Source: Shigella virus Moo19. From it: a DNA stretch of 64,000 nt. Both the position numbers and the translations under genes were made by a program. The stretch lies in sequence record MZ358387. One strand, given 5' to 3'. The notes under the pieces are model-generated. The model was not told the DNA's origin and ran no database searches. It saw only the letters and a program-made list of their open reading frames with translations. Of this stretch, positions 9,594 through 40,919 are shown piece after piece. The first letter of the stretch is position 1. Every line of letters begins with the position of its first letter.

Positions 9594-10534
9594 TTAAAGC
9601 AGAAGTAATTGCTGATAGTCTTCATGAGAAGACAGGCACTCGCATTACCACGTTTGAACTGGTTTACCCACGTTTCATTCACAGTGAGTTTATGACTCAC
9701 CGCATCTTCAACCGTAATGCTTCAAGCAGTCGTGCAATTCCTACCGACCGTTTTATTGAACAGGTGCGTACTGACCCTGTATTCCCAAGCTATTGGGGTA
9801 AGAACCAGAAAGGGATGCAGGCATTTGAAGAACTGTCTGAAGACCAACGTAGTGATGCAATGTTTATCTGGGACCAGGCTGCGTCCAGTGCTGCTACCTA
9901 TGCAGAAATGCTGCGTCGTGGACAAGTCCATAAGCAGATTGTTAACCGCATTCTGGAACCGTTCACCCATATCCGTGTGGTAGTTACATCCACTAGCTGG
10001 ACAAACTTCTATGGTTTACGTGACCATGAGGATGCCCAACCGGAAATCCGTTTACTGGCTCAGGCCATGAAGAAGGCTCATGAAGAATCTGTTCCGCAAA
10101 AACTCAAGAAAGGTGACTGGCATCTGCCTTATATTCGTGGTGCTGATTGTGCTAACGCTTACAATCATTGCAAATATCAACGAATTACAAGGGATGAACC
10201 AGGTAATGAGGAAATTTTAGGCTTACTGCTTAAAGTTTCTGCTGCTCGTTGTGCTCGTGCCTCCTATAACAACTTCGAAGGCAAGCCATCTACTATCAGT
10301 GATGACCTTGACCTCTTCGCTAAGTTGGTAGAGAAACAGCCAATTCATGCCTCACCTACTGAGCATCAGGCTACACCGATGGACTTCAGTACCAAGTACG
10401 TTAATAACTCAAACCCAGCAACCTGGGAACAGGGTGTTACCTCTATGGATAGGGAGGGTAATCTCTACTCCGGTAACCTGCTGCACTTCGTCCAATTCCG
10501 TAAACTCATCCCCGGCGAAACAATCACTGCGTGA
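9590..10534 (+). CDS. ThyX-like (flavin-dependent thymidylate synthase-like) protein, tentative
   Basis: Motif 'HSEFMTHRIFNRNASSSR' resembles the ThyX 'RHR-x7-S-x-R' signature. Motif-level only. Confidence 0.35.
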   Translation: MIKAEVIADSLHEKTGTRITTFELVYPRFIHSEFMTHRIFNRNASSSRAIPTDRFIEQVRTDPVFPSYWGKNQKGMQAFEELSEDQRSDAMFIWDQAASSAATYAEMLRRGQVHKQIVNRILEPFTHIRVVVTSTSWTNFYGLRDHEDAQPEIRLLAQAMKKAHEESVPQKLKKGDWHLPYIRGADCANAYNHCKYQRITRDEPGNEEILGLLLKVSAARCARASYNNFEGKPSTISDDLDLFAKLVEKQPIHASPTEHQATPMDFSTKYVNNSNPATWEQGVTSMDREGNLYSGNLLHFVQFRKLIPGETITA

Positions 10535-28987: not shown

Positions 28988-29026
28988 TTGCACAAGCAGA
29001 TAAGTTTGTAGTATAAAGATTTCCAC

Positions 29027-29108
29027 GGGGGAGTAGTCAAGCGGTCGAAGACGGCAGACTGTAAATCTGTTATCCCACACGGTAGTTCGAATCTACCCTC
29101 CCCCACCA
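29027..29108 (+). tRNA. tRNA-Tyr (anticodon GUA)
   Basis: 7-bp acceptor stem gggggag/ctccccc, T-loop TTCGAAT, anticodon arm 'gcagaCTGTAAAtctgt', encoded CCA. Anticodon arm resembles E. coli tRNA-Tyr as I recall it. Confidence 0.7.
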
Positions 29109-29109
29109 C

Positions 29110-29184
29110 GGTAAGTTAGCTAATTGGTGAAGCGGCTGACTGTTAATCAGTGATAGAGTGGTTCGAGTCCACTACTTACCGCCA
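29110..29184 (+). tRNA. tRNA-Asn (anticodon GUU)
   Basis: Acceptor ggtaagt/acttacc, anticodon loop 'ctGTTaa', T-arm agtgg-ttcgagt-ccact, encoded CCA. Starts 1 nt after tRNA-Tyr. Confidence 0.75.
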
Positions 29185-29189
29185 CATTA

Positions 29190-29266
29190 CGGAGTTTAGC
29201 TCAGTCTGGTAGAGCATCTGCTTTGGGAGCAGAGGGTCGTAGGTTCGAGTCCTGCAATTCCGACCA
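29190..29266 (+). tRNA. tRNA-Pro (anticodon UGG)
   Basis: Acceptor cggagtt/aattccg (one G-U), D-arm gctc...gagc, anticodon loop 'ttTGGga', T-loop ttcgagt, encoded CCA. Confidence 0.75.
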
Positions 29267-29272
29267 AACAAT

Positions 29273-29348
29273 TAGGGGTTAGTTCAGTTGGTAGAACATC
29301 GGACTTTGATTCCGAATGTCACAGGTTCGAATCCTGTACCCCTTGCCA
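29273..29348 (+). tRNA. tRNA-Gln (anticodon UUG)
   Basis: Acceptor taggggt/acccctt (1:72 mismatched), anticodon stem tcgga/tccga, loop 'ctTTGat', T-arm acagg-ttcgaat-cctgt, encoded CCA. Confidence 0.7.
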
Positions 29349-29350
29349 AA

Positions 29351-29426
29351 TGCTTCATAGCTTAGTAGGTAGAGCACACCCCTGATAAGGGTGAGGTCAT
29401 TGGTTCAAATCCAATAACGGACGCCC
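29351..29426 (+). tRNA. tRNA-Ile(GAU)-like element with no acceptor stem (possible pseudo-tRNA or non-canonical tRNA)
   Basis: Intact D-arm, anticodon arm 'cacccCTGATAAgggtg' and T-arm 'attgg-ttcaaat-ccaat', but 5' tgcttca cannot pair with 3' aacggac. Starts 2 nt after tRNA-Gln. Confidence 0.35.
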
Positions 29427-29653
29427 AATTTGGCAGTAACATAGTCCTGATTGTATAGCACTCTAAAGACAACACTGGTAAGACAGTCCAGTGGCTGCTA
29501 ATATATTGTTATTCCCCTCGACGGGAATTTCGCTGGAGAATAGGAACTCCTTAAATCCTAGCCCTGATGAAGTAGTGGACTATCAATCCATCCTCGCTCT
29601 AGTGATGAGTACTACTGAATCTGCAAGCCTCCCAGCTATGGGTAAATAGTACT

Positions 29654-29689
29654 AAGCCCCTCAGAGCCGTCACTCTGGGGGGCTTTTTT
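29654..29689 (+). terminator. rho-independent terminator closing the tRNA/ncRNA region
   Basis: About 11-bp stem ('gcccctcagag'/'ctctggggggc') followed by TTTTTT. Confidence 0.7.
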
Positions 29690-29718
29690 ATTCGAACAAT
29701 ACAAACACTGAGGAACCT

Positions 29719-30141
29719 ATGGAACTCGAACAAAAGATTAAAGAAGCTGGTGCTGATAAAGCTCCACGTATTACCCCTGACCATATCCAGAGCAAAGTAA
29801 TTGCTAAGCACTTCTTCACAGCATTAGATGGTGCATCCACTCAGATGCGTAGCGAAGATAAGTTCTCGAACCAGGAAGTACAGTCACTGTCTCTACTGAC
29901 TTTCTGTGTACTGGTTCTGGAGAATGGCTTTACTGTTACTGGTGAGTCTGCCTGTGCATCCCCGGAAAATTTCAATGAGGAAATTGGACGTAAGATTGCC
30001 TATGACAATGCAATCGATAAAGTCTGGTTGCTGGAAGGTTACCTGCTTAAGCAGAATCTCCATGAGCAAGCTCAGAGCCAGGAAATGCTGAAGGGTTTTC
30101 TGGAAAACAATGAATGTGAGGGTGGGGGCTGTAAAATATAA
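29719..30141 (+). CDS. hypothetical protein (N4 gp49-like by position)
   Basis: GAGGAA then ATG 29719. Last substantial rightward gene before the strand switch. Confidence 0.4.
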   Translation: MELEQKIKEAGADKAPRITPDHIQSKVIAKHFFTALDGASTQMRSEDKFSNQEVQSLSLLTFCVLVLENGFTVTGESACASPENFNEEIGRKIAYDNAIDKVWLLEGYLLKQNLHEQAQSQEMLKGFLENNECEGGGCKI

Positions 30142-30377: not shown

Positions 30378-30383
30378 AAATTA

Positions 30384-30412
30384 AAGCCCCTCTAATGAGG
30401 GGCTTTTTTATT
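30384..30412. terminator. bidirectional rho-independent terminator at the strand switch
   Basis: Stem 'aagcccctc'/'gaggggctt', loop 'taat', flanked by A-run upstream and T-run downstream. Sits between convergent genes. Confidence 0.65.
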
Positions 30413-33400
30413 TTAGTTTACCAGATTCATCCAAGGGTTGAGGTTATGAGCACGTAAGCCCTGACCCAATCCGATAGAGTAATCCAGTCTACCATCAGCA
30501 GCAGCCGAGAACAGGTTATCCTGTAATGGCAGACCAACGTTACCAAACATGGTAGGAGTTGGAGCCAGCATAGCCATAGCTGCATGAACAGGGTTATTAC
30601 GAATCATGGACACTGCAACTTTAGTAGAACGAATCTTAAAGTTATAGAACCACATCAGACCCATGCTTTCCATGTAACCACGGAAACGACCCGGCAGACG
30701 GTCATAGTTAATGAACTCTTCGGTAACACGACCCAGAGCTTCTTCCTTACTCTTACCTTTACGCTTAGTCAGTTCATCATAGATGATTGCTTTAGCAATA
30801 AAGTCAGAGTACTCAACCGTCTTCTGGATACCCTGGAACAGAGCAGTATCCTTAGTGATAAGTGCATAACGACCAGCAGTTTGCAGCTTCTTAGGCAGCT
30901 TATCTGCTAAACGCTGCATGTACTCCTGTACCTTACCATCCGGGATTAACAGGTCATCACGAGAGATACCAGCATCAGCAATAGAAGAGAACTCACCAGC
31001 TTCCAGCAAAGGCCAGATACTCATACGCTTATAGCTATCATTGATGGACTGAATCTCAGCTTTCAGTTTACGAGCCTGGTTCGGATTAGTAGTTGCACGA
31101 AGTTCTGCTTCAGCATCAACCTGGCGAAGACGAGACTTCATATACTGGTTAATCTCAGCAGTCTTCTGAGGGATACCTTTAGCAATATCCTTAACTGGAA
31201 CACCACGGGCAACCATCTGATAGAGGTTAGCCAGGAAGTTCACAGCAGGAACCACGAGAGACTTGACCACGATTAAGGTCTTAGCCTCACGTACAACCGT
31301 CTGAGTGATATTCTCACCCTGCATAAAGTATTTGTATGCACGGTTGCCAAATACGCCCAGCATTGCTTTCTTGAAGGTATCCAAAGTCTCAGGTGACCAA
31401 CGAGAGTTACCAGTCCATACATCACCAACAGAAGCAGCACGATAACCAAGTGCATCATTCAACATGTCACGACGTACCCACAGTTCACCATTACCAAACA
31501 GTGACTCAGCTTTCTGACGAGTTTCTGCATTCATCAGACGCATAGCATCAGCAGTAACTGGGTCAAGTTTAGAACCAAGAAGGTTAATGTACTGGCTCTT
31601 ATTGCTGGTAGAATCTGCCATGTCCTTCTCGTACATAGCGTGAAGATTTTCAATCAGAGCATCGTTAAACTTCTGGGCTTTAGCTTCTTCTACCTGACGA
31701 CCTCGCCATACACCAATTGCTTTAGCAAGGTTATCCTCACCAGCAATGTGAGTCAGCATGTTAGGGTCAATAGAGTGCTCATAAGCAACCACACGACCAT
31801 TGCCATCATAGATAGGCATCAGTGGTTCATTACCACGTTCACCCTTCGCCAGAGCTTTGGTGATACGGTCAACGGAAGGCTTGTCAGTAATACGACCAGC
31901 AACCATTGTTCCCATTGTGAAGCCAGTACCAACATCCACACCACCAGCAGTATTACGAACGTTCTGGAGAATACCCTGTGAGTATGGAGCACGAGCAGCA
32001 ACCGGGCTGAAGTAGTAACCACGACTACGAGTACGTTCACCAGAGCTACCCTGATAACCAGCAATACGAGTGAATGACTTCTCACTCAGTTCGTTAAACT
32101 GGCTGTCTTCTGCAACAATCAGGTTAACACCCTGCTTAGTCTCAGAAGGAATGTAGCCTTTGTAGTGGTTCAAACGAGCACGGTCATCATTCTGTGCTTT
32201 ACGTTTCTCTTCCACACGCTGGCCTACCAGATAGGAAGTGACAAAGTCCATACCTTCGGTTTCAGTCTGAGCCAGGGAAGCTAATGCCTCACGGTCAGCC
32301 TGACTCATTGCTTCGATGGCATACAGAGTAATCAGCTTGTCTAAGGTGTCCACATCAACGGTAGATTTAACGCTGGTACGCTCACCTAACAGACGGGAGA
32401 TTGCCTCAGCATTACGCAGCAGGTTGTTACCGACAGTACCATTAATCATGTACTGAGCCAGTTGCTTAGACTTACGGTTAATCAAAGGCCAGTTACGTCC
32501 TGCCTGATTCTGGAGGTCAGCTTCCAGCTTATTAACCAGCTTATCCATTTCTTTCTGTGAAGACAGCAGGTCACGAATTTCACCCAGACTCATGGTGTCA
32601 CGCAGTACAGCAAGGTCAGTTTTACCCATACCAGTGTGCATAGCTTTCCACTCTGCATCAGTCAGCTTACGGCTGAACTTAGAAGCAATAGTGGTAGGCA
32701 GATGCTCACGGAATTGCTGACGGTCAGCCTGTACCTGAGAGCGAACAGCTTTAATCATGTCATAGACAGAAGCATTCGACTTAGTACGACCTACGATGTC
32801 ATTAACCAGGTCATAGAAAGGTTGCCATGCTTTTCCCTGGTTCATTGCAGCCATAACACCCTGTGCAACTTTCTCACCGTTCTTCTCAGTAGCAATAGCA
32901 GCTACCAATTGAGCAGCATGAGCAGTTGCCTTAACCAGTGGGTTCTTAGCATTAGCAGCAACATCACGAGCAGTATCCAGTGTGGCATCAGCCAGACGTT
33001 CTACACCATCAACAATATATTGGTTAGCACGGTCAATCATATTCCCAGTTGGGGTAGCAACAGAGTCATAGAAGGACTGAGCATTCAGGCTGGATTCCAT
33101 AATAGTTTCTGCCAGAGCATCAATACCTTCCTGAACGTTAGTTGCTTTGGTATCACCAGCAACACGCTTGTTCAGGCTATCCATTGCAGCTACGCCAATG
33201 TTAGTCAGCATTGCATCAATAGTATTACCGGATGCTTTATCTGCTTTCATAACAGGCATGTCAGTCAGTACGTTACGTACCTCTTCGCTTACCATTGCCA
33301 GACCAACAAAGGTAGGCAGTAAGGAAGAACGACCCTGAGCATCAAACTCAATATTGTTAGCACCCATCAACGTATCGAACTTCTGTTGAGCATAGTAACG

Positions 33401-36400
33401 GTCAGCAGGGTTAGTGCTGTTCGGGTCTGCCATGAAGTCTTCTACTTTCAGGTTCTTGGTAACGTGAGTGTAATACTCCTGAGCACGAGCCAGAGCAGCA
33501 GGATGAATTGCAGCCTCAGTTGCTAGTGCAGCAACAATGTTGGTGAACAGACGACGTTCTTGCATGTTCATAGTAAAACCATGCCCCTGAACATCACGAG
33601 TTACCTTAACTGCATTCACTACTGCGTCAGAGAATTTACCCTTACGCATATGTTGCTGTACCGGGTCATTACCCAGGTAGTTCGTAATGAGACGGTCAAA
33701 GGTTTGACCCAGTGAAGTAAGACGGTCATTGTTGCCATAAGCAGTGCTATGGAACAGGGTAGCCTCAGCAGTAACCGGAGCAACCGGAGGCTGTGAACGC
33801 ATCACTACAGCAGAGTTAAACAGCAGACCGGAGAACATATCTTCACCGTAAGCAGGGGCTTTCTTACGACCAAAAATGAGGCGTTTAATTGCTTCATAAA
33901 CATCTTTAACCATCCTGGTAAGAGCAGTGGTTTTCTTCTGCTTCTTAATCAGTTCATGGTTGGTTAAGCCCCATGCCATGTACTCATTCAGTGCAGCAGC
34001 TTTAGCCATTGCTGGGTCAATGAAACCGTTGGACAGATGACCATTGATAGTATCCAGTGCATCAGCGTAAGCCTCACGCATAGCCGGAGTATCTTTGGAT
34101 ACATCCAGACTACGGAACTGTTCCATCAGATTCTCGATGTTCTGTACAGCTTCATTGGTCTGGCCTTGATAGTGGTCAAGTACAGTCTCAAAAGTAGAAG
34201 CATGAACCAGTTCATGAATCAAGGTTTCCATTGATGGGCTAACCAGGTAGACAGTCTTATCTGCAAAGTTAGTCCAACCATAGATATTACCTGCATTTGC
34301 AGCTTCAATATCTTCTGGAGCAGGACGCTCTACGTTACGTTCCATTGCATACTGGTCAATCTGGTTCACGTTACCGTAAACAACCTTGTAGCCTTTAGCA
34401 GCCAGTGACTTCTGAATCTCATTCAGTACAGCAGCCTGTTCAACAGGAAGGTTGGACTCTTTAGCCAGTTTGTTAATAGCAGTCTGAGACAGCACACGAA
34501 CACCAGACTTCAGAGCACGGCCTACAGTATCAAACTTATTAGTATCGGCTACTGGAGTCTTCTCAGCTTTACGAGCCTCTTTACGAGCCTGCAATTCAGC
34601 ATCGAATAGCTCATTCAGTTTTGCTACTTGCTGGTCAACAGTCAGACCATCCAGAGAGATATTACCGTTGTTCACATAAGGGGAACCAACAGCAGCCATC
34701 TGGTCAACAGTAGTCTGTACCTGGTTCATTACCTTGTGACGGATATCGACACCCAGAGCAATGTTACGCAGGTTACGCTCAATAAGATTAACACCTGCTT
34801 TCTCAATCATATCAATCTTATACTGCCTGTCACCATCAACACGACTGATATGAGAAAGTTGTTCAAAATCCAAAGCAGAACGGGCAATACTATCAATTGC
34901 TTCATCTGATAACTTATTGAAATCTACATTTTTTACAAACTTAGAGAAGGAGTCATACACATTCTTGATAGGGTTACCCTGCCATGAAGTGTATACAGCT
35001 TCGTTAGCCTTACGGCTTGCATCAGTGATGTCATTGATACCGATGTTCATACCATCAAAGATTTTGAGAGTATTTTTCGGTGCACCTTTCATAATAGAAA
35101 GGGTCTGCATCATCATGCCGTCACCAGTACCAATCGTCATGAAAGGAATACCAGCAACACCAGCTTGTGACGGTGCATAGATGCTCATTGGCACACGCAT
35201 ACGGTCATCAAAGTTGGTAGCCAGAACCTGGTTAGCAACATCAGTATTCTCAGAACCAGCAATGTAGAAAGTCTGGGAACCAGTCTCAATCATTGGAGCT
35301 AAGTCAGACAGTGAAGCCTGAATATCGTTAAGCTCTTTCTGAGTTAAGAAGTCACCCTTCTTCCAGTTAGGGTCTTTTTCTTTTTCTGCCAGCTTCTCCT
35401 GGACACGTTGCTGGAACATGTCTTGCAGAACCAGAGACTGAATCTGGGTAGCTTTCTGAAGCTGTTCAGTGGAGTGCATCAGCCCTTCACCAACAGTATT
35501 CTGAATACCCTGTCTCATTGGTTCAACGAAAAAGTGCAGCATGTTCTCTTGCAGAGACTTCAGTTGCTCACCTTTGACAGTGAACTTCTGAGGGTCAATC
35601 TTGCCAGACATAGCAGTACCAGTGTCTTCAAGAGACAGTTTACCTTTACGCATAACTGGAACAGTACCAGTCAATGCTTTCATGTCTTCAATGAAACGAC
35701 CGAGCATAGCCTCAGCATCGGCCTCAGATGCTGCCTGCTTGCCGAACATTGCCATAGCCGGGGAAATGTCCGGGTTCTGTGCACGGGCTTGCAGAACGTC
35801 GCTGAAGCGTTCGTAGATGGCATCAGTAATTGCACTCACCATCTTGCCTGCAATACCACGAGCACCGGAACCATAAATGGTAATGGTCAGTGGGTTCTTG
35901 GCAATGCCACGTTTCAGTTCGAGGTTGCCTTCTTCATTGATGTTATAGTCAGGAATGAACAAGTCCATCAGAGAGGACAGATGATTCATCTGAGTATTAA
36001 CAGCCGGGTTATTGGCATAGGTATTTCGCAGGTTAGTCAGTGCAGCTTTCAGACCGTTAGTGGATGCTTCGTACAGGTCAACGCTATCGTCAATAGAACG
36101 ATGTTCGTTCATCGTCTTACCAGCACGACCAAAGAATAGACCACCCTTAGCAGTATTCTGTACCCATTCTTTGGTGAACTTACCACCAGTCATCAGCATC
36201 ATTGCGTTAATCGGACCGTTGGTTACACCATCAGCCTCAACGTACAGTGGAGTGTTGAACTTAGACTTGTCTTCAGCATTCAGGTAACGGGCATACTCCA
36301 TCAGAGCCATGAGAGCTACGAAGGATTTATCACCACCCAATGCAGTATTCAGAATCTCAACAGAGTTATCTGGCAGGTTCCCAGTTTTATCGAAATCAAC

Positions 36401-39400
36401 CATCATATCGACAGCAGGTTTCAAATTGCCTTCCAGTGCAGCAGTCAGTTTTGCTGACATTGCCTCACGAGACATGTTGTGAACCTTGATGCCCAATGCC
36501 TGAGCCAAGCCAACCTGGAAATCAGAGAAGGTCTGTGAGTTTTCATTGGACAGGTCAATAGTAGAAAACGTAGGCAGAATAGCTTCACGAACCAGCTTAC
36601 TGGACTGAGGATTATTCTTACCAAGCATCTGCATACGACCAACACGAGTCATGTTGTAGGCATAGTGGATTGGAGTTTCCAGTCCGTTTTCCTGTGCACG
36701 AGTTTGCTCTACCACACTAAACAAGGAATCATAAGCCATAGCTACTGACAGGTTTTTACCTTCCAGTGACTTAGCAGTATTCACATTCAGCAGTTCAGGA
36801 TTAAGCGTACCAGCACCCATCAATTCCAGAATCTTGTCACGACCCATAGCCTCATAGAAGTTAACCATAGGTTCATGAATACGGAACTCAGTAGCCTGTT
36901 CTGCTTTCAGAGCAGCTTTCTGTTCCGGGGTATTCTTAACAGCAGGGTTGCGTAACTGAGTCTGAGCCACAGAAGGTACGTCGTCACCGAAGTACATTTT
37001 CTCTTCTGGTTCTACCAACACAGCTTCTTCAATTGCTGTAGGGAATTTATTGATAGGGTCATTGTCTGCCAGCTTATCAATGGTATACAGACCAACAGTC
37101 TTAGTGGAGTCTGGGTCAATTTCAGAGACATCTAGCATAGTCTCAGTAACTTCACCTGCTTCAATAAGAGCAGACAGAATCTCAGTTGCCATAGCAACAG
37201 GGATACCTTTGGTATAACCCAGTGGTGCATTAGGGTTACGGTCAAAGCCCCAGTAAGATTCAATTTTCTGAGCCAGTGAGTTAGTAGCTTCAACGAGAGT
37301 CTGAGCATTCTCAAACATCTCAACTACACCTTCCGGTAACAGAGCCTGTTCAATACCAGTAATAGCAGCCACGTCTTTAGCATCTTTAACGGCAGCATTC
37401 TGAGTAGCAGTCAGTCGCCATTGCAGACCAGCAAGTACGGCAGTTTCAAGCAGAGAATCGTTGAACTTAAAGCTATTGCCATCTGGTTCAACAATATTCA
37501 GCAGCTTACCACCAACCCAACGGTTAGCTTCAGTGCCCTCAGCAAAACGCTTACCTACGTTCTTGTTAGACAGGAACTTAGCCAGTCGGTCATTCAGAAT
37601 GGATTTAATGTTTTCACCCGTGTTCATCAGGTCTTTATAACGACCAGATACATCAGGGGTAAGAGCAGTATTCTCACTCTGAGTAAACGTTTCGAAACGT
37701 GCATTAGAAGACAGAGCCTGACCAATATCTTTCATTGGAGACTCGGAACCAGTGGTACGAGACTTAGGTTCAGCAGGTAATGAGTAAGCAATCTTGAGGT
37801 AATTTTTTACCCCAGGCTGGCTGACATCAGTACTCCCAACCAAATCAGGATAAGCAGCGTCAATACCACTACGAGTGGATTCCACTTCATTAGTAGTTTC
37901 CTCAGTATTTTCAGTAACATCCTCGATGCTACCCTCATTGATGAGGGTAGCATCCTTTGCCTTTTCGGATTGAGGCTTAGTTACTTTCTCTGGTTCTGCC
38001 TTAGACTCAGTAAAAGGAGCACTATTTTCTACCGTCGATTCCCTATTAGGAGTTACAGTAGGTGCAGCCTCCTGAGTTTGTGCAGGAGTTTCGTCAACTT
38101 GATTCACTGGTTCATTAGTCTGTTGGGATTGAGCAGCGTCAAGATTGCCCTGACGGAACTCTTTAACCACCTGGGCAGCAGGCTTGTCCAGACGTGAATC
38201 CAATGAGGTAACATTGATATGAGAAACGTTAAGCTCCGGGTAAGCCGTAGCAAGTGCATTAGCAATATCAGCTACGGTTTTGGCTTCCAGTCCTACTTGC
38301 TGGGCAAACTTAACCGACTTGGTATCGTAAGGATTAACACCGAGTCCAGTACGACTTCTTACCCATTCACGGGAAGGGGTGAGGGCTTGGTAATGGACAG
38401 ACTTATTCTTATCCGCATTCCCAGAAATCAGATGTTCATTCAACGCTCCGACCTTGTTCTGCATGTGCTGGGCGAACTGCATAAAGTCGCTCAAATAAGC
38501 GGAAGCCAAATCGAAGTTACCAGAGTTATACGCAGACCGAATGCGTTTAGCATGTTGCAACGCAGAGTACTGGCCTTCATTAGAACGAGACTCGTCGGTT
38601 TTAATCTGTTTACCCACAATGTCTTGAGGCCGTAAACCAAGCTGTTCAGCTTTGGTATCAAACTCACGTGCTCCCTGTAATAGAGCAGCAGCGGATTGCA
38701 GGGCAGCACGTTGACGATTGTTCAACGTAATCTTGCCTTCACTCGCATGTTTCAGAACCATGTTCACTGAATCAGCGTCCAGTACTTCCGGGCTTACGTC
38801 AGCAGCCATTGCTACGTTGTTAGCCTGATTCTGGTCTGCTACATCTTCGGTCACATTCAGATTACCTTGTTCAGCTTGTTCCTGAATCATGGAATGAATG
38901 GCACGGAATGCACGAAGTACCTTTGGAGTATTCTGGATGTTAGCCATCAGACCCGAATACTGGTCGAGCACAGCATTAGCAGGACTATCTTTAGGCAGAT
39001 TGTTCAGTGCAGCAGGGTCACGGTTAACGAAGTCTTCCATCTGCATAACCATGTCGTACATATTGGCAGCAGCTTCCATCATCTGGTTCGGGTCTTCAGT
39101 AGTGTTAACTACATCAGCCAGTTTCTGGATTACCTGAACTCGGTCAGTGGAACCGTTAACAGCTTCCTGAACCACAGGAGAAGCATCAGCAAATTCTTCC
39201 GGGTTAATACGGGTAGCATTAACCAAATCACTTGCATACTGGTGTGCAGCAGCCTTCTCTTCAGGAGAGATGTCCATTGCTTCAACAGCATCAGCCATAG
39301 TTGCCTGAGCAGTATCTGCTTGTGCAGCAGCTTCCTGAGCAGCCTCAGCTACTTTAGCGTCAGCAACAGGAGAAGCCTCTTCATTGCGTCGTGCAACTTC

Positions 39401-40852
39401 TTCACCACGTTGAACCAGGATATTGGTAATAGGTGAAGCAGCTTTAGCTACGACATTACCAGCAGCGTTAAGACCAGCCAGGGTAGTACGCAGAGCAGGA
39501 CCAGCAGCAGCACTTGCAGCTTTAACAGCAGAGCCAGGAGCTTGAGCAACTCCAGCAGAGCCGAAGCCATAGAGTGCACCCAGACCAGCTTGCTCACCCA
39601 CACCTTTGAGTGTGTCACGGGTAGCATCAACGTTACTCCGAATTGCACGGTTCTGTGCATACTGACCAGTACCAGACTGAATACCTTCTTCCACAGTCTC
39701 ACGAAGCATGTTGGAACCAGCACCAGCAAGTGAACCTACTTTCAGTGGATTCAGTTCAAACTTGGATACCAGTGGACCCGTTGCAGCAGCAACCGGAGCA
39801 GTGATAGCAGCAGCATCAATACCTGTTTCAGAAGCAGTCTGACGACGAGCTTCATCTGGAGAAAGACCATCTTTGATATGTTGCTGATAAACAGGAGACT
39901 TAGCAGCCAGTTCTTCATGAGACATTTTCATAATCTCAGAAGCAGTTTGCTGATAAGCACCACCAGCTTCCATTGTGCCAATAGCAATGGCAGCAGGAGC
40001 AACCTTAGAGGCAGCATTAACCAACTGTGCAGGACGATGGCCTAATTCAGCAGCAAGTGCAATTGCACGAGCAGCTTTTTCACCACCCATTACAGCACGA
40101 CCTAATGCAGCAACCCCTTTAATAAGAGGACCACCCGTAAACAGTGAGCCTACTCCTTCGCTCAATCCATCTGTTGCAGCCATACCAGTGTCAAGAGTGT
40201 TGGCAACAGAATCATAAGCGTCACGGCCAATACGAGAAAGAGAAGCGACCAAATCACTCTCGCCATCTTTAATATCCTGTTCGTATAAACGCTGGTTTTT
40301 CTGAGCAGATAGCTGGTTCTGGTTCTGAACTACTTTACGGGAAAGATTTAAAGCATCAGACTGAAGACCATGAACACCTTCATTCAACCAGTCCATGCCA
40401 CTAGCTATGGTAGCACCAGCATTATCGTTGATAAGACCTGTTCCAAGAGAAGCAATGCCCCCAAGGGTATTAGCAACACCAAGACCAACACCAGAAAGAG
40501 AATCACCAATTGCTTCTGCATTCGTTCTCTCTCTGGATAAGTCCTGACGAACAGAATCGGCTGCATTAGCACGGCTATTAAGAATACGAAGACCTTCTTC
40601 GGTTCCATACTTAGCAATAAGTTCCATTGGGGAGGCTTGAGTAAAATCAGCCTGAAGTGAACCTGGTTCGAATGCACCAATGCCGAGATTACCTACCCGA
40701 CCTGTTTGAAGGTTATAGGCAGTATCTGGGGTGAGTTGGAAAGGGTTATACCCTTCAGCAGCTTGCTTCTGGGAGGTTGCAGTAGAGACATCGACTTGCT
40801 TAGCATTAGTGATGCTGTCTGCGAAACCTGCCAGTCTGTCAAATGTTGACAT
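30413..40852 (-). CDS. giant virion RNA polymerase (N4 gp50-like)
   Basis: ~10.4-kb ORF. Central region carries T7-like motifs ('YVEADGVTNGPINA', 'KNPLTITIYGSGARG'). ATG at 40852 has AGGAAA RBS; ORF-track start 40894 is GTG. Confidence 0.8.
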   Translation of the reverse strand: MSTFDRLAGFADSITNAKQVDVSTATSQKQAAEGYNPFQLTPDTAYNLQTGRVGNLGIGAFEPGSLQADFTQASPMELIAKYGTEEGLRILNSRANAADSVRQDLSRERTNAEAIGDSLSGVGLGVANTLGGIASLGTGLINDNAGATIASGMDWLNEGVHGLQSDALNLSRKVVQNQNQLSAQKNQRLYEQDIKDGESDLVASLSRIGRDAYDSVANTLDTGMAATDGLSEGVGSLFTGGPLIKGVAALGRAVMGGEKAARAIALAAELGHRPAQLVNAASKVAPAAIAIGTMEAGGAYQQTASEIMKMSHEELAAKSPVYQQHIKDGLSPDEARRQTASETGIDAAAITAPVAAATGPLVSKFELNPLKVGSLAGAGSNMLRETVEEGIQSGTGQYAQNRAIRSNVDATRDTLKGVGEQAGLGALYGFGSAGVAQAPGSAVKAASAAAGPALRTTLAGLNAAGNVVAKAASPITNILVQRGEEVARRNEEASPVADAKVAEAAQEAAAQADTAQATMADAVEAMDISPEEKAAAHQYASDLVNATRINPEEFADASPVVQEAVNGSTDRVQVIQKLADVVNTTEDPNQMMEAAANMYDMVMQMEDFVNRDPAALNNLPKDSPANAVLDQYSGLMANIQNTPKVLRAFRAIHSMIQEQAEQGNLNVTEDVADQNQANNVAMAADVSPEVLDADSVNMVLKHASEGKITLNNRQRAALQSAAALLQGAREFDTKAEQLGLRPQDIVGKQIKTDESRSNEGQYSALQHAKRIRSAYNSGNFDLASAYLSDFMQFAQHMQNKVGALNEHLISGNADKNKSVHYQALTPSREWVRSRTGLGVNPYDTKSVKFAQQVGLEAKTVADIANALATAYPELNVSHINVTSLDSRLDKPAAQVVKEFRQGNLDAAQSQQTNEPVNQVDETPAQTQEAAPTVTPNRESTVENSAPFTESKAEPEKVTKPQSEKAKDATLINEGSIEDVTENTEETTNEVESTRSGIDAAYPDLVGSTDVSQPGVKNYLKIAYSLPAEPKSRTTGSESPMKDIGQALSSNARFETFTQSENTALTPDVSGRYKDLMNTGENIKSILNDRLAKFLSNKNVGKRFAEGTEANRWVGGKLLNIVEPDGNSFKFNDSLLETAVLAGLQWRLTATQNAAVKDAKDVAAITGIEQALLPEGVVEMFENAQTLVEATNSLAQKIESYWGFDRNPNAPLGYTKGIPVAMATEILSALIEAGEVTETMLDVSEIDPDSTKTVGLYTIDKLADNDPINKFPTAIEEAVLVEPEEKMYFGDDVPSVAQTQLRNPAVKNTPEQKAALKAEQATEFRIHEPMVNFYEAMGRDKILELMGAGTLNPELLNVNTAKSLEGKNLSVAMAYDSLFSVVEQTRAQENGLETPIHYAYNMTRVGRMQMLGKNNPQSSKLVREAILPTFSTIDLSNENSQTFSDFQVGLAQALGIKVHNMSREAMSAKLTAALEGNLKPAVDMMVDFDKTGNLPDNSVEILNTALGGDKSFVALMALMEYARYLNAEDKSKFNTPLYVEADGVTNGPINAMMLMTGGKFTKEWVQNTAKGGLFFGRAGKTMNEHRSIDDSVDLYEASTNGLKAALTNLRNTYANNPAVNTQMNHLSSLMDLFIPDYNINEEGNLELKRGIAKNPLTITIYGSGARGIAGKMVSAITDAIYERFSDVLQARAQNPDISPAMAMFGKQAASEADAEAMLGRFIEDMKALTGTVPVMRKGKLSLEDTGTAMSGKIDPQKFTVKGEQLKSLQENMLHFFVEPMRQGIQNTVGEGLMHSTEQLQKATQIQSLVLQDMFQQRVQEKLAEKEKDPNWKKGDFLTQKELNDIQASLSDLAPMIETGSQTFYIAGSENTDVANQVLATNFDDRMRVPMSIYAPSQAGVAGIPFMTIGTGDGMMMQTLSIMKGAPKNTLKIFDGMNIGINDITDASRKANEAVYTSWQGNPIKNVYDSFSKFVKNVDFNKLSDEAIDSIARSALDFEQLSHISRVDGDRQYKIDMIEKAGVNLIERNLRNIALGVDIRHKVMNQVQTTVDQMAAVGSPYVNNGNISLDGLTVDQQVAKLNELFDAELQARKEARKAEKTPVADTNKFDTVGRALKSGVRVLSQTAINKLAKESNLPVEQAAVLNEIQKSLAAKGYKVVYGNVNQIDQYAMERNVERPAPEDIEAANAGNIYGWTNFADKTVYLVSPSMETLIHELVHASTFETVLDHYQGQTNEAVQNIENLMEQFRSLDVSKDTPAMREAYADALDTINGHLSNGFIDPAMAKAAALNEYMAWGLTNHELIKKQKKTTALTRMVKDVYEAIKRLIFGRKKAPAYGEDMFSGLLFNSAVVMRSQPPVAPVTAEATLFHSTAYGNNDRLTSLGQTFDRLITNYLGNDPVQQHMRKGKFSDAVVNAVKVTRDVQGHGFTMNMQERRLFTNIVAALATEAAIHPAALARAQEYYTHVTKNLKVEDFMADPNSTNPADRYYAQQKFDTLMGANNIEFDAQGRSSLLPTFVGLAMVSEEVRNVLTDMPVMKADKASGNTIDAMLTNIGVAAMDSLNKRVAGDTKATNVQEGIDALAETIMESSLNAQSFYDSVATPTGNMIDRANQYIVDGVERLADATLDTARDVAANAKNPLVKATAHAAQLVAAIATEKNGEKVAQGVMAAMNQGKAWQPFYDLVNDIVGRTKSNASVYDMIKAVRSQVQADRQQFREHLPTTIASKFSRKLTDAEWKAMHTGMGKTDLAVLRDTMSLGEIRDLLSSQKEMDKLVNKLEADLQNQAGRNWPLINRKSKQLAQYMINGTVGNNLLRNAEAISRLLGERTSVKSTVDVDTLDKLITLYAIEAMSQADREALASLAQTETEGMDFVTSYLVGQRVEEKRKAQNDDRARLNHYKGYIPSETKQGVNLIVAEDSQFNELSEKSFTRIAGYQGSSGERTRSRGYYFSPVAARAPYSQGILQNVRNTAGGVDVGTGFTMGTMVAGRITDKPSVDRITKALAKGERGNEPLMPIYDGNGRVVAYEHSIDPNMLTHIAGEDNLAKAIGVWRGRQVEEAKAQKFNDALIENLHAMYEKDMADSTSNKSQYINLLGSKLDPVTADAMRLMNAETRQKAESLFGNGELWVRRDMLNDALGYRAASVGDVWTGNSRWSPETLDTFKKAMLGVFGNRAYKYFMQGENITQTVVREAKTLIVVKSLVVPAVNFLANLYQMVARGVPVKDIAKGIPQKTAEINQYMKSRLRQVDAEAELRATTNPNQARKLKAEIQSINDSYKRMSIWPLLEAGEFSSIADAGISRDDLLIPDGKVQEYMQRLADKLPKKLQTAGRYALITKDTALFQGIQKTVEYSDFIAKAIIYDELTKRKGKSKEEALGRVTEEFINYDRLPGRFRGYMESMGLMWFYNFKIRSTKVAVSMIRNNPVHAAMAMLAPTPTMFGNVGLPLQDNLFSAAADGRLDYSIGLGQGLRAHNLNPWMNLVN

Positions 40853-40919
40853 AGCTTGTTTCCTGTTCAAACTTATATCTATAAGAGAACTCACTGTACA
40901 TTAAGTGAGGGTAAGAAAA

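Follow-up and report, generated by a model that had tools for sequence, protein, structure and literature searches.

Between the transfer RNA (tRNA) array and the next gene of Shigella virus Moo19 (sequence record MZ358387) lies what sequence comparison indicates is a conserved, non-coding, modular structured RNA, encoded on the plus strand and ending in a terminator. The element occupies positions 29431–29690 (~260 nucleotides, nt) of the 64,000-nt stretch that we analyzed, hereafter the window, whose sequence places it among the N4-like phages (Schitoviridae, Enquatrovirinae). An initial annotation, made by a model from the letters alone, had proposed about 230 nt of structured non-coding sequence at this site; the structured and non-coding character is upheld by our results, whereas the length was underestimated. 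We regard the element as representing a genuine, conserved family of structured RNAs that seems not to have been described, best filed with the phage RNAs that are associated with tRNA clusters. A full-text literature search returned no paper describing it in N4-like phages. The initial annotation had suggested an Rfam search as a check on its idea of an uncharacterized small RNA, and the outcome fits that idea: no family matched the element in a search with a 236-nt query that extended to E values of 10, the best hits being small nucleolar RNA or leader models (E = 0.7–10) far below their gathering scores. Gathering-threshold scans of the related loci with Rfam 15 yielded tRNAs only, and neither ARAGORN nor the Rfam tRNA model (RF00005) reported a tRNA within 29428–29690.

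A 269-nt query matched 95 phage records, 38 of them over at least 80% of its length; sorted by the first word of the organism name, they fall under Escherichia (66), Klebsiella (11), Salmonella (11), Shigella (4), and Gamaleyavirus (3). In a four-way alignment, positions 29430–29545 are almost invariant and the flanking tRNA region is far more diverged; the insertions and deletions among relatives are not multiples of three. Neither the plasmid collection nor any of 5,426 complete E. coli genomes contained a match, and the element appears to be phage-specific and absent from the host. The initial annotation had staked its proposal on conservation and covariation in related phages; the former is evident from these matches, and the latter is strong, as detailed below. 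It had also seen no convincing plus-strand open reading frame (ORF) while allowing for a short protein-coding gene, and we found no conserved coding gene. The sole plus-strand ORF of note (29491–29649, 52 amino acids [aa], starting at GTG) lacks conservation: among relatives its frame, end point, and C-terminus change, its start is GTG or TTG, and N4 has none. The records of Bas96 and Mimir124 annotate small ORFs in the element.

The 5′ portion of the element, module A (29432–29499, plus strand, ~68 nt), is predicted from alignments, RNAalifold, and a covariance model to fold as a three-way junction with a pseudoknot. Its helices, all on the plus strand, are P1 (29432–29437 with 29494–29499), P2 (29449–29454 with 29458–29463), and P3 (cactgg 29473–29478 with ccagtg 29488–29493; loop UAAGACAGU). 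The pseudoknot joins AUAGUC in the junction strand J1 (29441–29446) to GACAGU in the P3 loop (29482–29487). Hardly any variation is seen in the junction strands AACAUAGUCCU and UCUAAAGACAA. P3 is the first of two inverted repeats singled out by the initial annotation; both proved exact, and the second corresponds to hairpin B, described below.

Given 18 distinct sequences, RNAalifold predicted P1, P2, and P3 as a three-way junction, to which we added the pseudoknot. In alignment A2, 97.2% of cells pair and 11 pairs changed on both sides, a result that none of 500 shuffles equaled; in slid controls, only 20–44% of cells pair. A covariance model (R1) comprising P1–P3 only, with the pseudoknot left out, gave one hit in the window (95.6 bits) and also recovered diverged members (L037/L044, Erwinia phage phiEaP8, and L101). 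A second, weak hit in contig L040 was rejected as another copy, as that region resembles a coding stretch of the window. In alignment A5, which holds 29 distinct sequences, 97.1% of cells are paired as against 21–43% in slid controls, none of 500 shuffles reached any of five measures, and 17 of the 22 pairs changed on both sides, counts that for P1–P3 are biased toward the model, to which the alignment was fitted. Because the pseudoknot is absent from the covariance model, its covariation constitutes independent evidence: three of the 17 changed pairs belong to it, and its variants comprise GUC/GAC, GCC/GGC, AGC/GCU, and, in the phiEaP8 type, UGCC/GGUA. All five P1 pairs are swapped in ECBP1 and pSb-1 (UAGAG/CUCUA versus GCAGU/GCUGC).

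Downstream of module A, the element takes on the character of a mosaic of exchangeable hairpins, since the versions of hairpins B and C mix freely: hairpin C is of type a or b alongside B type 1, and of type a′, b, or c alongside B type 2. Hairpin B (29511–29528, plus strand) consists of AUUCCC (29511–29516), the loop CUCGAC, and GGGAAU (29523–29528), and is exchanged in other lineages for other hairpins, such as CAUAC...GUAUG and CGUCCA...UGGAUG. Hairpin C (29535–29550, plus strand) has the stem GGAG/CUCC around the loop AAUAGGAA; its stem covaries (GGAG/CUCC, AGUG/CACU, and GAGC/GCUC), and it is followed by a conserved linker, UUAAAUCCUAGCC (29551–29563, plus strand). A CsrA-type GGA loop was considered for hairpin C and rejected, the GGA being absent from the AAGGUAA version.

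Domain D (29564–29623, plus strand) is predicted to be Y-shaped on the basis of separate folds of 29 sequence variants, the same shape recurring in most of those that bear a YYAUCAA loop. In the window, its closing helix CUGAU/AUCUG contains a tandem G·A and leads into a 6-base-pair (bp) stem, AGUAGU/ACUACU, from which two plus-strand branches arise: a first hairpin (29577–29589) with the 7-nt loop CUAUCAA (29580–29586), and a second, variable hairpin (29593–29609). The D stem (6–10 bp) is wholly different from lineage to lineage (AGUAGU/ACUACU, CUUACUC/GAGUAAG, UGCAAUAU/AUAUUGCA, and others). The YYAUCAA loop, closed by a hairpin stem of 3–4 bp, and the overall architecture are kept across lineages. 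CUAUCAA has the format of an anticodon loop, with a pyrimidine at position 32, U33, three bases, A37, and A38. Moreover, its UAUCA is complementary to UGAUA in the anticodon loop of tRNA-Ile(GAU), and the adjacent pseudo-tRNA carries GAU. One may speculate from this match that the D loop pairs with the tRNA-Ile anticodon, and we offer the idea as a lead only. It is weakened by the fact that any triplet is a codon, by phiEaP8, which has a tRNA-Ile but no YYAUCAA loop, and by several loop-bearing phages that lack a tRNA-Ile in the fetched DNA. Two other ideas about this domain were discarded. A rivalry between the D loop and the 5′ strand of hairpin E for AUAG shows no covariation, and the second version of E (AGUCA) occurs with an unchanged D loop. 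Likewise, a hammerhead core at CUGAUGA (29564–29570) is not kept in relatives, which show CUGAGUA, CUGAAGC, or CUGAGCC.

Module E (29624–29653, plus strand) comprises CAAGCCUCCCA, the hairpin GCUAU-GGGUAA-AUAGU (29635–29650), and ACU. Because MAFFT alignment A3 put gaps inside the stem, pair counts come from a register set manually, in which covariation is seen at four of the five stem pairs. The stem variants are GCUAU/AUAGC, GUUAU/AUAGC, UAGCU/AGCUA, UGACU/AGUCA, and ACUAU/AUAGU, and the loop is G(G/C)GU(N)AA. One pair between the upstream strand and the loop flips from C-G to G-C along with the second base of the loop, and a small H-type pseudoknot of 2–3 bp between CCC (29631–29633) and the loop GGG (29640–29642) is possible, if weakly supported. 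The (A)CUAAG junction that follows is nearly invariant, and its AAG starts the terminator stem. A terminator scan placed the intrinsic terminator at 29654–29690 on the plus strand. There, the stem AAGCCCCUCAGAG/CUCUGGGGGGCUU (13 pairs within 29654–29685, 8 of them G-C) encloses a 6-nt loop and is followed by TTTTTTATT, a U run, as in a Rho-independent terminator; the long-stem terminator of the initial annotation is thus in place. Every relative has an equivalent terminator, although its sequence varies. An alternative terminator was also considered: AAGCCUCCCAG pairs perfectly with the terminator 3′ arm in the window, but the pairing is not conserved elsewhere, breaking down in TR2, phiEaP8, and the second version of module E. 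The strand of the RNA follows from these structures, since the G·U pairs (U·G in P1 of 13 sequences, G·U in E) would be A·C on the other strand and the terminator lies on the plus strand.

Sequences resembling hairpin E occur outside the element. A loose version of the pattern is also found at window positions 10451 and 59960, in keeping with a rough estimate of the chance rate, and these were not accepted as further copies. An unrelated viral contig, L028 (242–311 and 372–447), carries the motif three times in tandem as CCCAGCUAUGGGU(U)AAAUAG, in the interval that separates the end of an nrdA-like gene from a tRNA-Arg(UCU). Contigs L030, L031, and L038 carry it with a conserved additional upstream C. 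The hairpin-E 18-mer CCAGCTATGGGTAAATAG occurs in 27 stretches of bacterial genomes, against about 17 expected by chance as estimated from the collection size; most represent one unrelated high-copy repeat and, except for L093 (see below), were set aside as uninformative. This repeat (at least ~150 nt; L068–L092) lies in metagenome-assembled genomes (CAXXGD, CAXXMW, CAXXHF) that are labeled Rhodospirillales, Arenicella, and Flavobacteriaceae and stem from a single project. It is unrelated to the phage element and may be contaminating or mis-binned DNA.

The modules of the element occur apart from one another. N4 has A–C and the terminator without D or E; L066 has lost D; L040 has lost the 5′ strand of E, along with half of D, through a deletion; and the metagenome relative L101 retains only A and the terminator. 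Conversely, the Salmonella N4-like phages TR2, UTK0002, and their relatives, which belong to other subfamilies, have D–E and the terminator without A. Their D–E is 88% identical to that of the window across 84 nt and follows a tRNA array and a 58-aa Arg-rich ORF. That ORF (MRYIKMNKGPNRSERRAASRHARRMEK...) lies between the tRNA array and D–E in L012 (985–1161) and L025 (568–744); it matched no Pfam family and has no homologue in the window. N-like antitermination through it was accordingly rejected. The distance from module A to the terminator ranges from ~10 to ~250 nt across lineages. As the modules occur separately and can be deleted, the RNA would be an accessory function with at least two independently useful parts.

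Module A also travels beyond the N4-like phages. Its phiEaP8 type is found with 83–86% identity in the Escherichia phages EP_H11 (111 kilobases, kb) and IME392 (116 kb), where it stands alone, with no terminator and no B–E, between tRNA-Arg and tRNA-Met; the tRNA-Met gene lies 12 nt downstream of it. Pseudomonas phage nickie (Nickievirus, 112 kb) has it 27 nt upstream of tRNA-Arg, with a 10-bp P1, and in Erwinia phage phiEaP8 itself it directly follows tRNA-Tyr. Within the phiEaP8/nickie group, P1 covaries (CAGG/CCUG, UAGG/CCUA, and long unrelated helices), while three features are kept: CAUGCC in J1, AAAGAC in J2/3, and the P3 loop. The covariance model found no module A in the more distant N4-like loci that were fetched. 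Its presence among the tRNA genes of other phages is the strongest reason to view module A as a self-contained, tRNA-sized RNA gene that is processed out of tRNA transcripts, and not as a leader.

In the window, four tRNA genes, Tyr(GTA), Asn(GTT), Pro(TGG), and Gln(TTG), occupy 29027–29348 (ARAGORN; 60–69 bits with the Rfam tRNA model). The array lies upstream of the element, and both it and the element terminator are on the plus strand, the co-orientation that the initial annotation had described. A fifth, tRNA-Ile(GAU)-like gene at 29351–29427 (plus strand) is a pseudo- or chimeric tRNA. ARAGORN made no call for it; Rfam matched it partially (50.1 bits at 29358–29415, model positions 8–63 only, with the acceptor stem outside the match). 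Its D, anticodon, and T arms are intact, its 5′ acceptor strand UGCUUCA is unable to pair with the 3′ AACGGAC, and it terminates in GCCCA, 4 nt upstream of module A. At the same position, many relatives have an unusual tRNA-Ile(AAT) with an intact acceptor. In the tRNA-like genes of Bas96, pSb-1, and Jgk1, the anticodon region is aberrant or expanded. A tRNA or tRNA-like gene lies upstream of the element in the window, PhAPEC7, PhAPEC5, CU10EC, SP5M, ST4, ECBP1, Bas96, and phiEaP8, and the layout of tRNA array, element, and terminator is the same in PhAPEC7, PhAPEC5, CU10EC, and phiEaP8. The downstream gene is of at least six different kinds among lineages: gp48/PF13876, a small ORF starting MIDLIL, other small ORFs, a 202-aa protein in the Salmonella phages, and, in Erwinia phages, an ORF that one record annotates as an EPS depolymerase. 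The common context thus appears to be the tRNA neighborhood and not the downstream gene, an association that is strong but not absolute.

What might such an RNA do? From its sequence and setting, we judge it reasonably probable that the element yields a trans-acting stable RNA that is transcribed with the tRNAs, processed out, and ended by the terminator. The element would form the 3′ part of the tRNA transcription unit, being co-transcribed with the tRNAs from the plus strand. Its 5′ end would probably arise when the preceding tRNA or tRNA-like gene is processed at its 3′ side, presumably by tRNA-processing nucleases, and its 3′ end would be defined by the intrinsic terminator. Module A would constitute one functional unit, a compact, self-contained, tRNA-sized RNA gene; D–E would be the other, a Y-shaped structure that presents the CUAUCAA loop, with a small hairpin or pseudoknot abutting the terminator; and the two would evolve independently. 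Most likely, a stable RNA cut from the tRNA polycistron acts in trans, binding a conserved partner through junction and loop bases that do not vary. The partner could be a tRNA-directed defense factor, or else a protein or an RNA belonging to the machinery for tRNAs, translation, or RNA processing. Because module A spans phages of Escherichia, Klebsiella, Erwinia, and Pseudomonas, the partner is more likely to be a host component than a phage-specific protein. A natural guess would be counter-defense, or the tuning of tRNAs or translation, by an accessory RNA that travels with tRNA genes. A more specific proposal can be advanced only tentatively, and we think it unlikely as a whole: module A may represent an unrecognized class of tRNA-sized functional RNAs that, once released from tRNA polycistrons, interact with a conserved host machine. 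This class would be shared by Schitoviridae of Escherichia, Klebsiella, and Erwinia, by Nickievirus of Pseudomonas, and by the 111–116 kb coliphages. Such RNAs might plausibly act as decoys or inhibitors of a tRNA-directed defense nuclease, or else modulate translation or the processing of tRNAs. In the window, module A might, just as doubtfully, be coupled to a module whose CUAUCAA pairs with or mimics an anticodon loop.

Several observations weigh against a trans-acting RNA released from a tRNA transcript. Folded on its own, the element has a minimum free energy of −80.2 kcal/mol, with a z of −1.97 relative to shuffles; this value is marginal, and the case for structure thus depends on comparison between sequences. 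Rfam detected no tRNA immediately upstream of the element in N4, KP8, K60, BaqKoxi, VTCC322, EC1-UPM, PD205, and Jgk1, where inspection by eye shows only T-arm-like remnants. The viral contig L124 has a module A of the phiEaP8 type, with a 14-bp P1, but no tRNA in the fetched 7 kb. In L096, a small ORF runs into module A, its stop being a UAG inside J1. The RNA is evidently dispensable, as L093, a relative with a near-identical D–E, has a deletion that runs from the DUF7740 gene into D and has removed all tRNAs and A–C. Finally, the next gene of the window (gp48) begins 28 nt past the terminator, which leaves no room for a promoter of its own.

This last observation, together with the strong terminator at the end of the element, speaks for a leader or attenuator acting in cis, riboswitch-like or responsive to a protein or a tRNA, that tunes read-through into gp48 and the genes beyond. 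Module A is aptamer-like in that its three-way junction is pseudoknotted and its junction bases are invariant, and in nearly all relatives the hairpin/pseudoknot with its invariant ACUAAG abuts the terminator. We nevertheless consider this explanation unlikely. A leader is hard to reconcile with a downstream gene that differs in at least six lineages, with a module A that lies between tRNA genes without any terminator, and with so variable a spacing between module A and the terminator; moreover, no conserved antiterminator pairing was found, that of AAGCCUCCCAG failing in relatives as described above, and no Rfam riboswitch family matches. Improbable, in turn, is a DNA-level or regulatory cassette, that is, a mobile terminator, promoter, or recombination module without an RNA function. 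T4-type phages carry promoter-stem-loop cassettes, and the modules of the present element are indeed shuffled as units between phages: D–E and the terminator are common to different subfamilies at 88% identity, and the hairpin-E motif stands in triplicate upstream of a tRNA in the unrelated contig L028. A weak promoter-like match even lies inside the element (29480–29507). That match, however, is at the level of chance (2 found by the scan versus 2.9 expected) and is not conserved in relatives, and it was rejected as a promoter; furthermore, the G·U wobble pairs are strand-specific, the pseudoknot covaries, and the junction bases are near-invariant, far exceeding what a terminator needs.

A self-cleaving ribozyme or processing signal, in which module A, positioned 4–8 nt past a tRNA 3′ end, would cut or recruit an RNase, strikes us as slightly more improbable still. 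Module A does lie beside the 3′ or 5′ ends of tRNAs or tRNA-like genes in many phages, and small ribozymes typically have a pseudoknotted junction like this one, small and with unpaired bases that are invariant, but Rfam returned no match to the hammerhead, twister, twister-sister, pistol, hatchet, hepatitis delta virus-like, or other ribozymes at E values up to 10, and the CUGAUGA of domain D is not conserved. Moreover, the processing of tRNA arrays is already carried out by RNase P, RNase E, and exonucleases of the host, which further argues against a ribozyme or dedicated signal. The least credible explanation, to which we give very little weight, is that the element has no function and represents decayed tRNA genes and a terminator, or that it is a short coding gene (the 52-aa ORF at 29491–29649). 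Pseudo-tRNA debris is common around the element, and small ORFs are annotated in Bas96 and Mimir124, with “hypothetical protein” in some relatives; yet compensatory changes occur throughout the element, which is better conserved than the flanking tRNAs and has no match to the tRNA model, and the ORFs lack an ATG, shift frame, and differ in their C-termini.

The surroundings of the element were also scrutinized. The nearest DNA matches of the window are Gamaleyavirus phages (~82% identity), and the phage collection contained no record near-identical to it. The closest relatives found are the metagenome contigs L096 and L093, the former being 97% identical to the window across the last 400 aa of the virion RNA polymerase, whose 3493-aa ORF occupies 30413–40894 on the minus strand. 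L093 is a 69-kb phage contig that is binned as an archaeal genome; its deletion junction (1500–1560), between the middle of the DUF7740 gene and domain D, falls at a short GCC(A/C)TG...TGATG microhomology. In L096 (2740–2960, minus strand), the small ORF inserted directly upstream of module A has the motif CPYSDYEWKEKRSWVLGY, which presumably resembles ribosome modulation factor (RMF). A candidate sigma-70-like promoter for the tRNA array and the element, weak and recognized by eye, lies at 28988–29017 on the plus strand (TTGCAC, an 18-nt spacer, and TATAAA, ~9 nt upstream of tRNA-Tyr). A consensus promoter scan did not report this candidate because the −10 hexamer has no T at position 6.

Downstream, 29719–30141 encodes an N4 gp48 family protein (PF13876) whose C-terminus reads ...NNECEGGGCKI. 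A C-terminal C(E/D)GGGC(K/T)I is kept in N4 gp48 and in the homologues from KP8 and PhAPEC7. We take this tail to resemble the redox-active C-terminal CESGACKI of the class Ia ribonucleotide reductase NrdA, by analogy with which it may be a tail that interacts with thioredoxin or glutaredoxin. The neighboring proteins provided no functional clue, matching PF13876, DUF7740, or PHROGs that lack an assigned function. At 30383–30406, between the rightward genes and the virion RNA polymerase gene that converges on them, lies a bidirectional terminator, a hairpin (AAAGCCCCTCTAATGAGGGGCTTT) with a T run on each strand.

Extra stable RNAs have been recognized in phage tRNA clusters for a long time, with rnaC and rnaD of T4 among them and GOLLD and ROOL as more recent examples, and the present element adds to them a small, well-defined fold that is supported by covariation. 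The fold occurs in N4, a classic model phage, as well as in phages of E. coli and Klebsiella that belong to Gamaleyavirus and Kaypoctavirus. Genome annotation now leaves the region blank or calls spurious small ORFs. Natural variants are at hand (A only, A–C only, D–E only, and a full deletion), making the role of tRNA-array RNAs testable in E. coli.

How does the element compare with known systems? T-box riboswitches are defined by a stem I with an internal specifier loop, a K-turn, and a T-box antiterminator whose UGGN bulge competes with the terminator. We rejected this identity: RF00230 gave no hit at E values up to 10, the AUC triplet of the element sits in a terminal 7-nt loop and not in an internal one, the UGGG of hairpin E is UGCG in its second version, and there is no conserved antiterminator pairing. 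The preQ1-I riboswitch lies upstream of queuosine-related genes and forms an H-type pseudoknot in which P1 has 5 bp, L3 is A-rich, and P2 ends in CUA(A/G). It was likewise rejected, RF00522 giving no hit; here, stem 1 would have 2–3 bp, stem 2 has 5 bp, and L3 has 3 nt, and the downstream genes encode gp48-family or unrelated proteins, not queuosine-related ones. Y RNA-like RNAs (YrlA, RF02553) were dismissed as well, since the only hit (28.4 bits versus a gathering score of 69) lies over genuine tRNAs (29211–29332).

Closer parallels are found among RNAs of phages and of tRNA operons. GOLLD and ROOL are pseudoknotted RNAs of phages and prophages that often lie near tRNA islands and are possibly co-transcribed with them, their function being unknown (PMC12286853; PMC5737381). 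They measure from ~580 to more than 800 nt and form multimeric cages, whereas the element has 260 nt and its module A is the size of a tRNA; the Rfam models of GOLLD and ROOL had no hit in the element. In the Pseudomonas N4-like phage LUZ7, abundant late non-coding RNAs of less than 250 nt, some apparently processed, arise between orf69 and orf70 (PMC9163698). They are likened to the element by their published description, which reports no link to tRNAs. The element lies between the last co-oriented tRNA and an intrinsic terminator, the position of a tRNA-operon trailer of the 3′ external transcribed spacer (3′ETS) type. The 3′ETS-leuZ sponge of the E. coli glyW-cysT-leuZ operon is reported to act in trans after processing (PMC9514646, citing Lalaouna et al. 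2015). Both RNAs lie between the last tRNA and the operon terminator; 3′ETS-leuZ is short and poorly structured and pairs with Hfq-bound small RNAs, whereas the element is dominated by a conserved, tertiary-type structure and resembles no E. coli sequence.

Closest to the element in kind, although not homologous to it, are rnaD and rnaC of T4, which the record names as species 2 and species 1 RNAs. With filters off, the module A covariance model found nothing in the T4 tRNA region at E < 0.5 and nothing in rnaC or rnaD. To our knowledge, neither has been assigned a function since the 1970s. The 3′ ends differ, as rnaC ends in a tRNA-like T arm and acceptor and the phage element in an intrinsic terminator. 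Nonetheless, like the element, the two T4 RNAs are co-oriented with the tRNAs and directly follow the last of them (tRNA-Arg), and their combined length of 258 nt (119 + 139 nt) is comparable to the 260 nt of the element.

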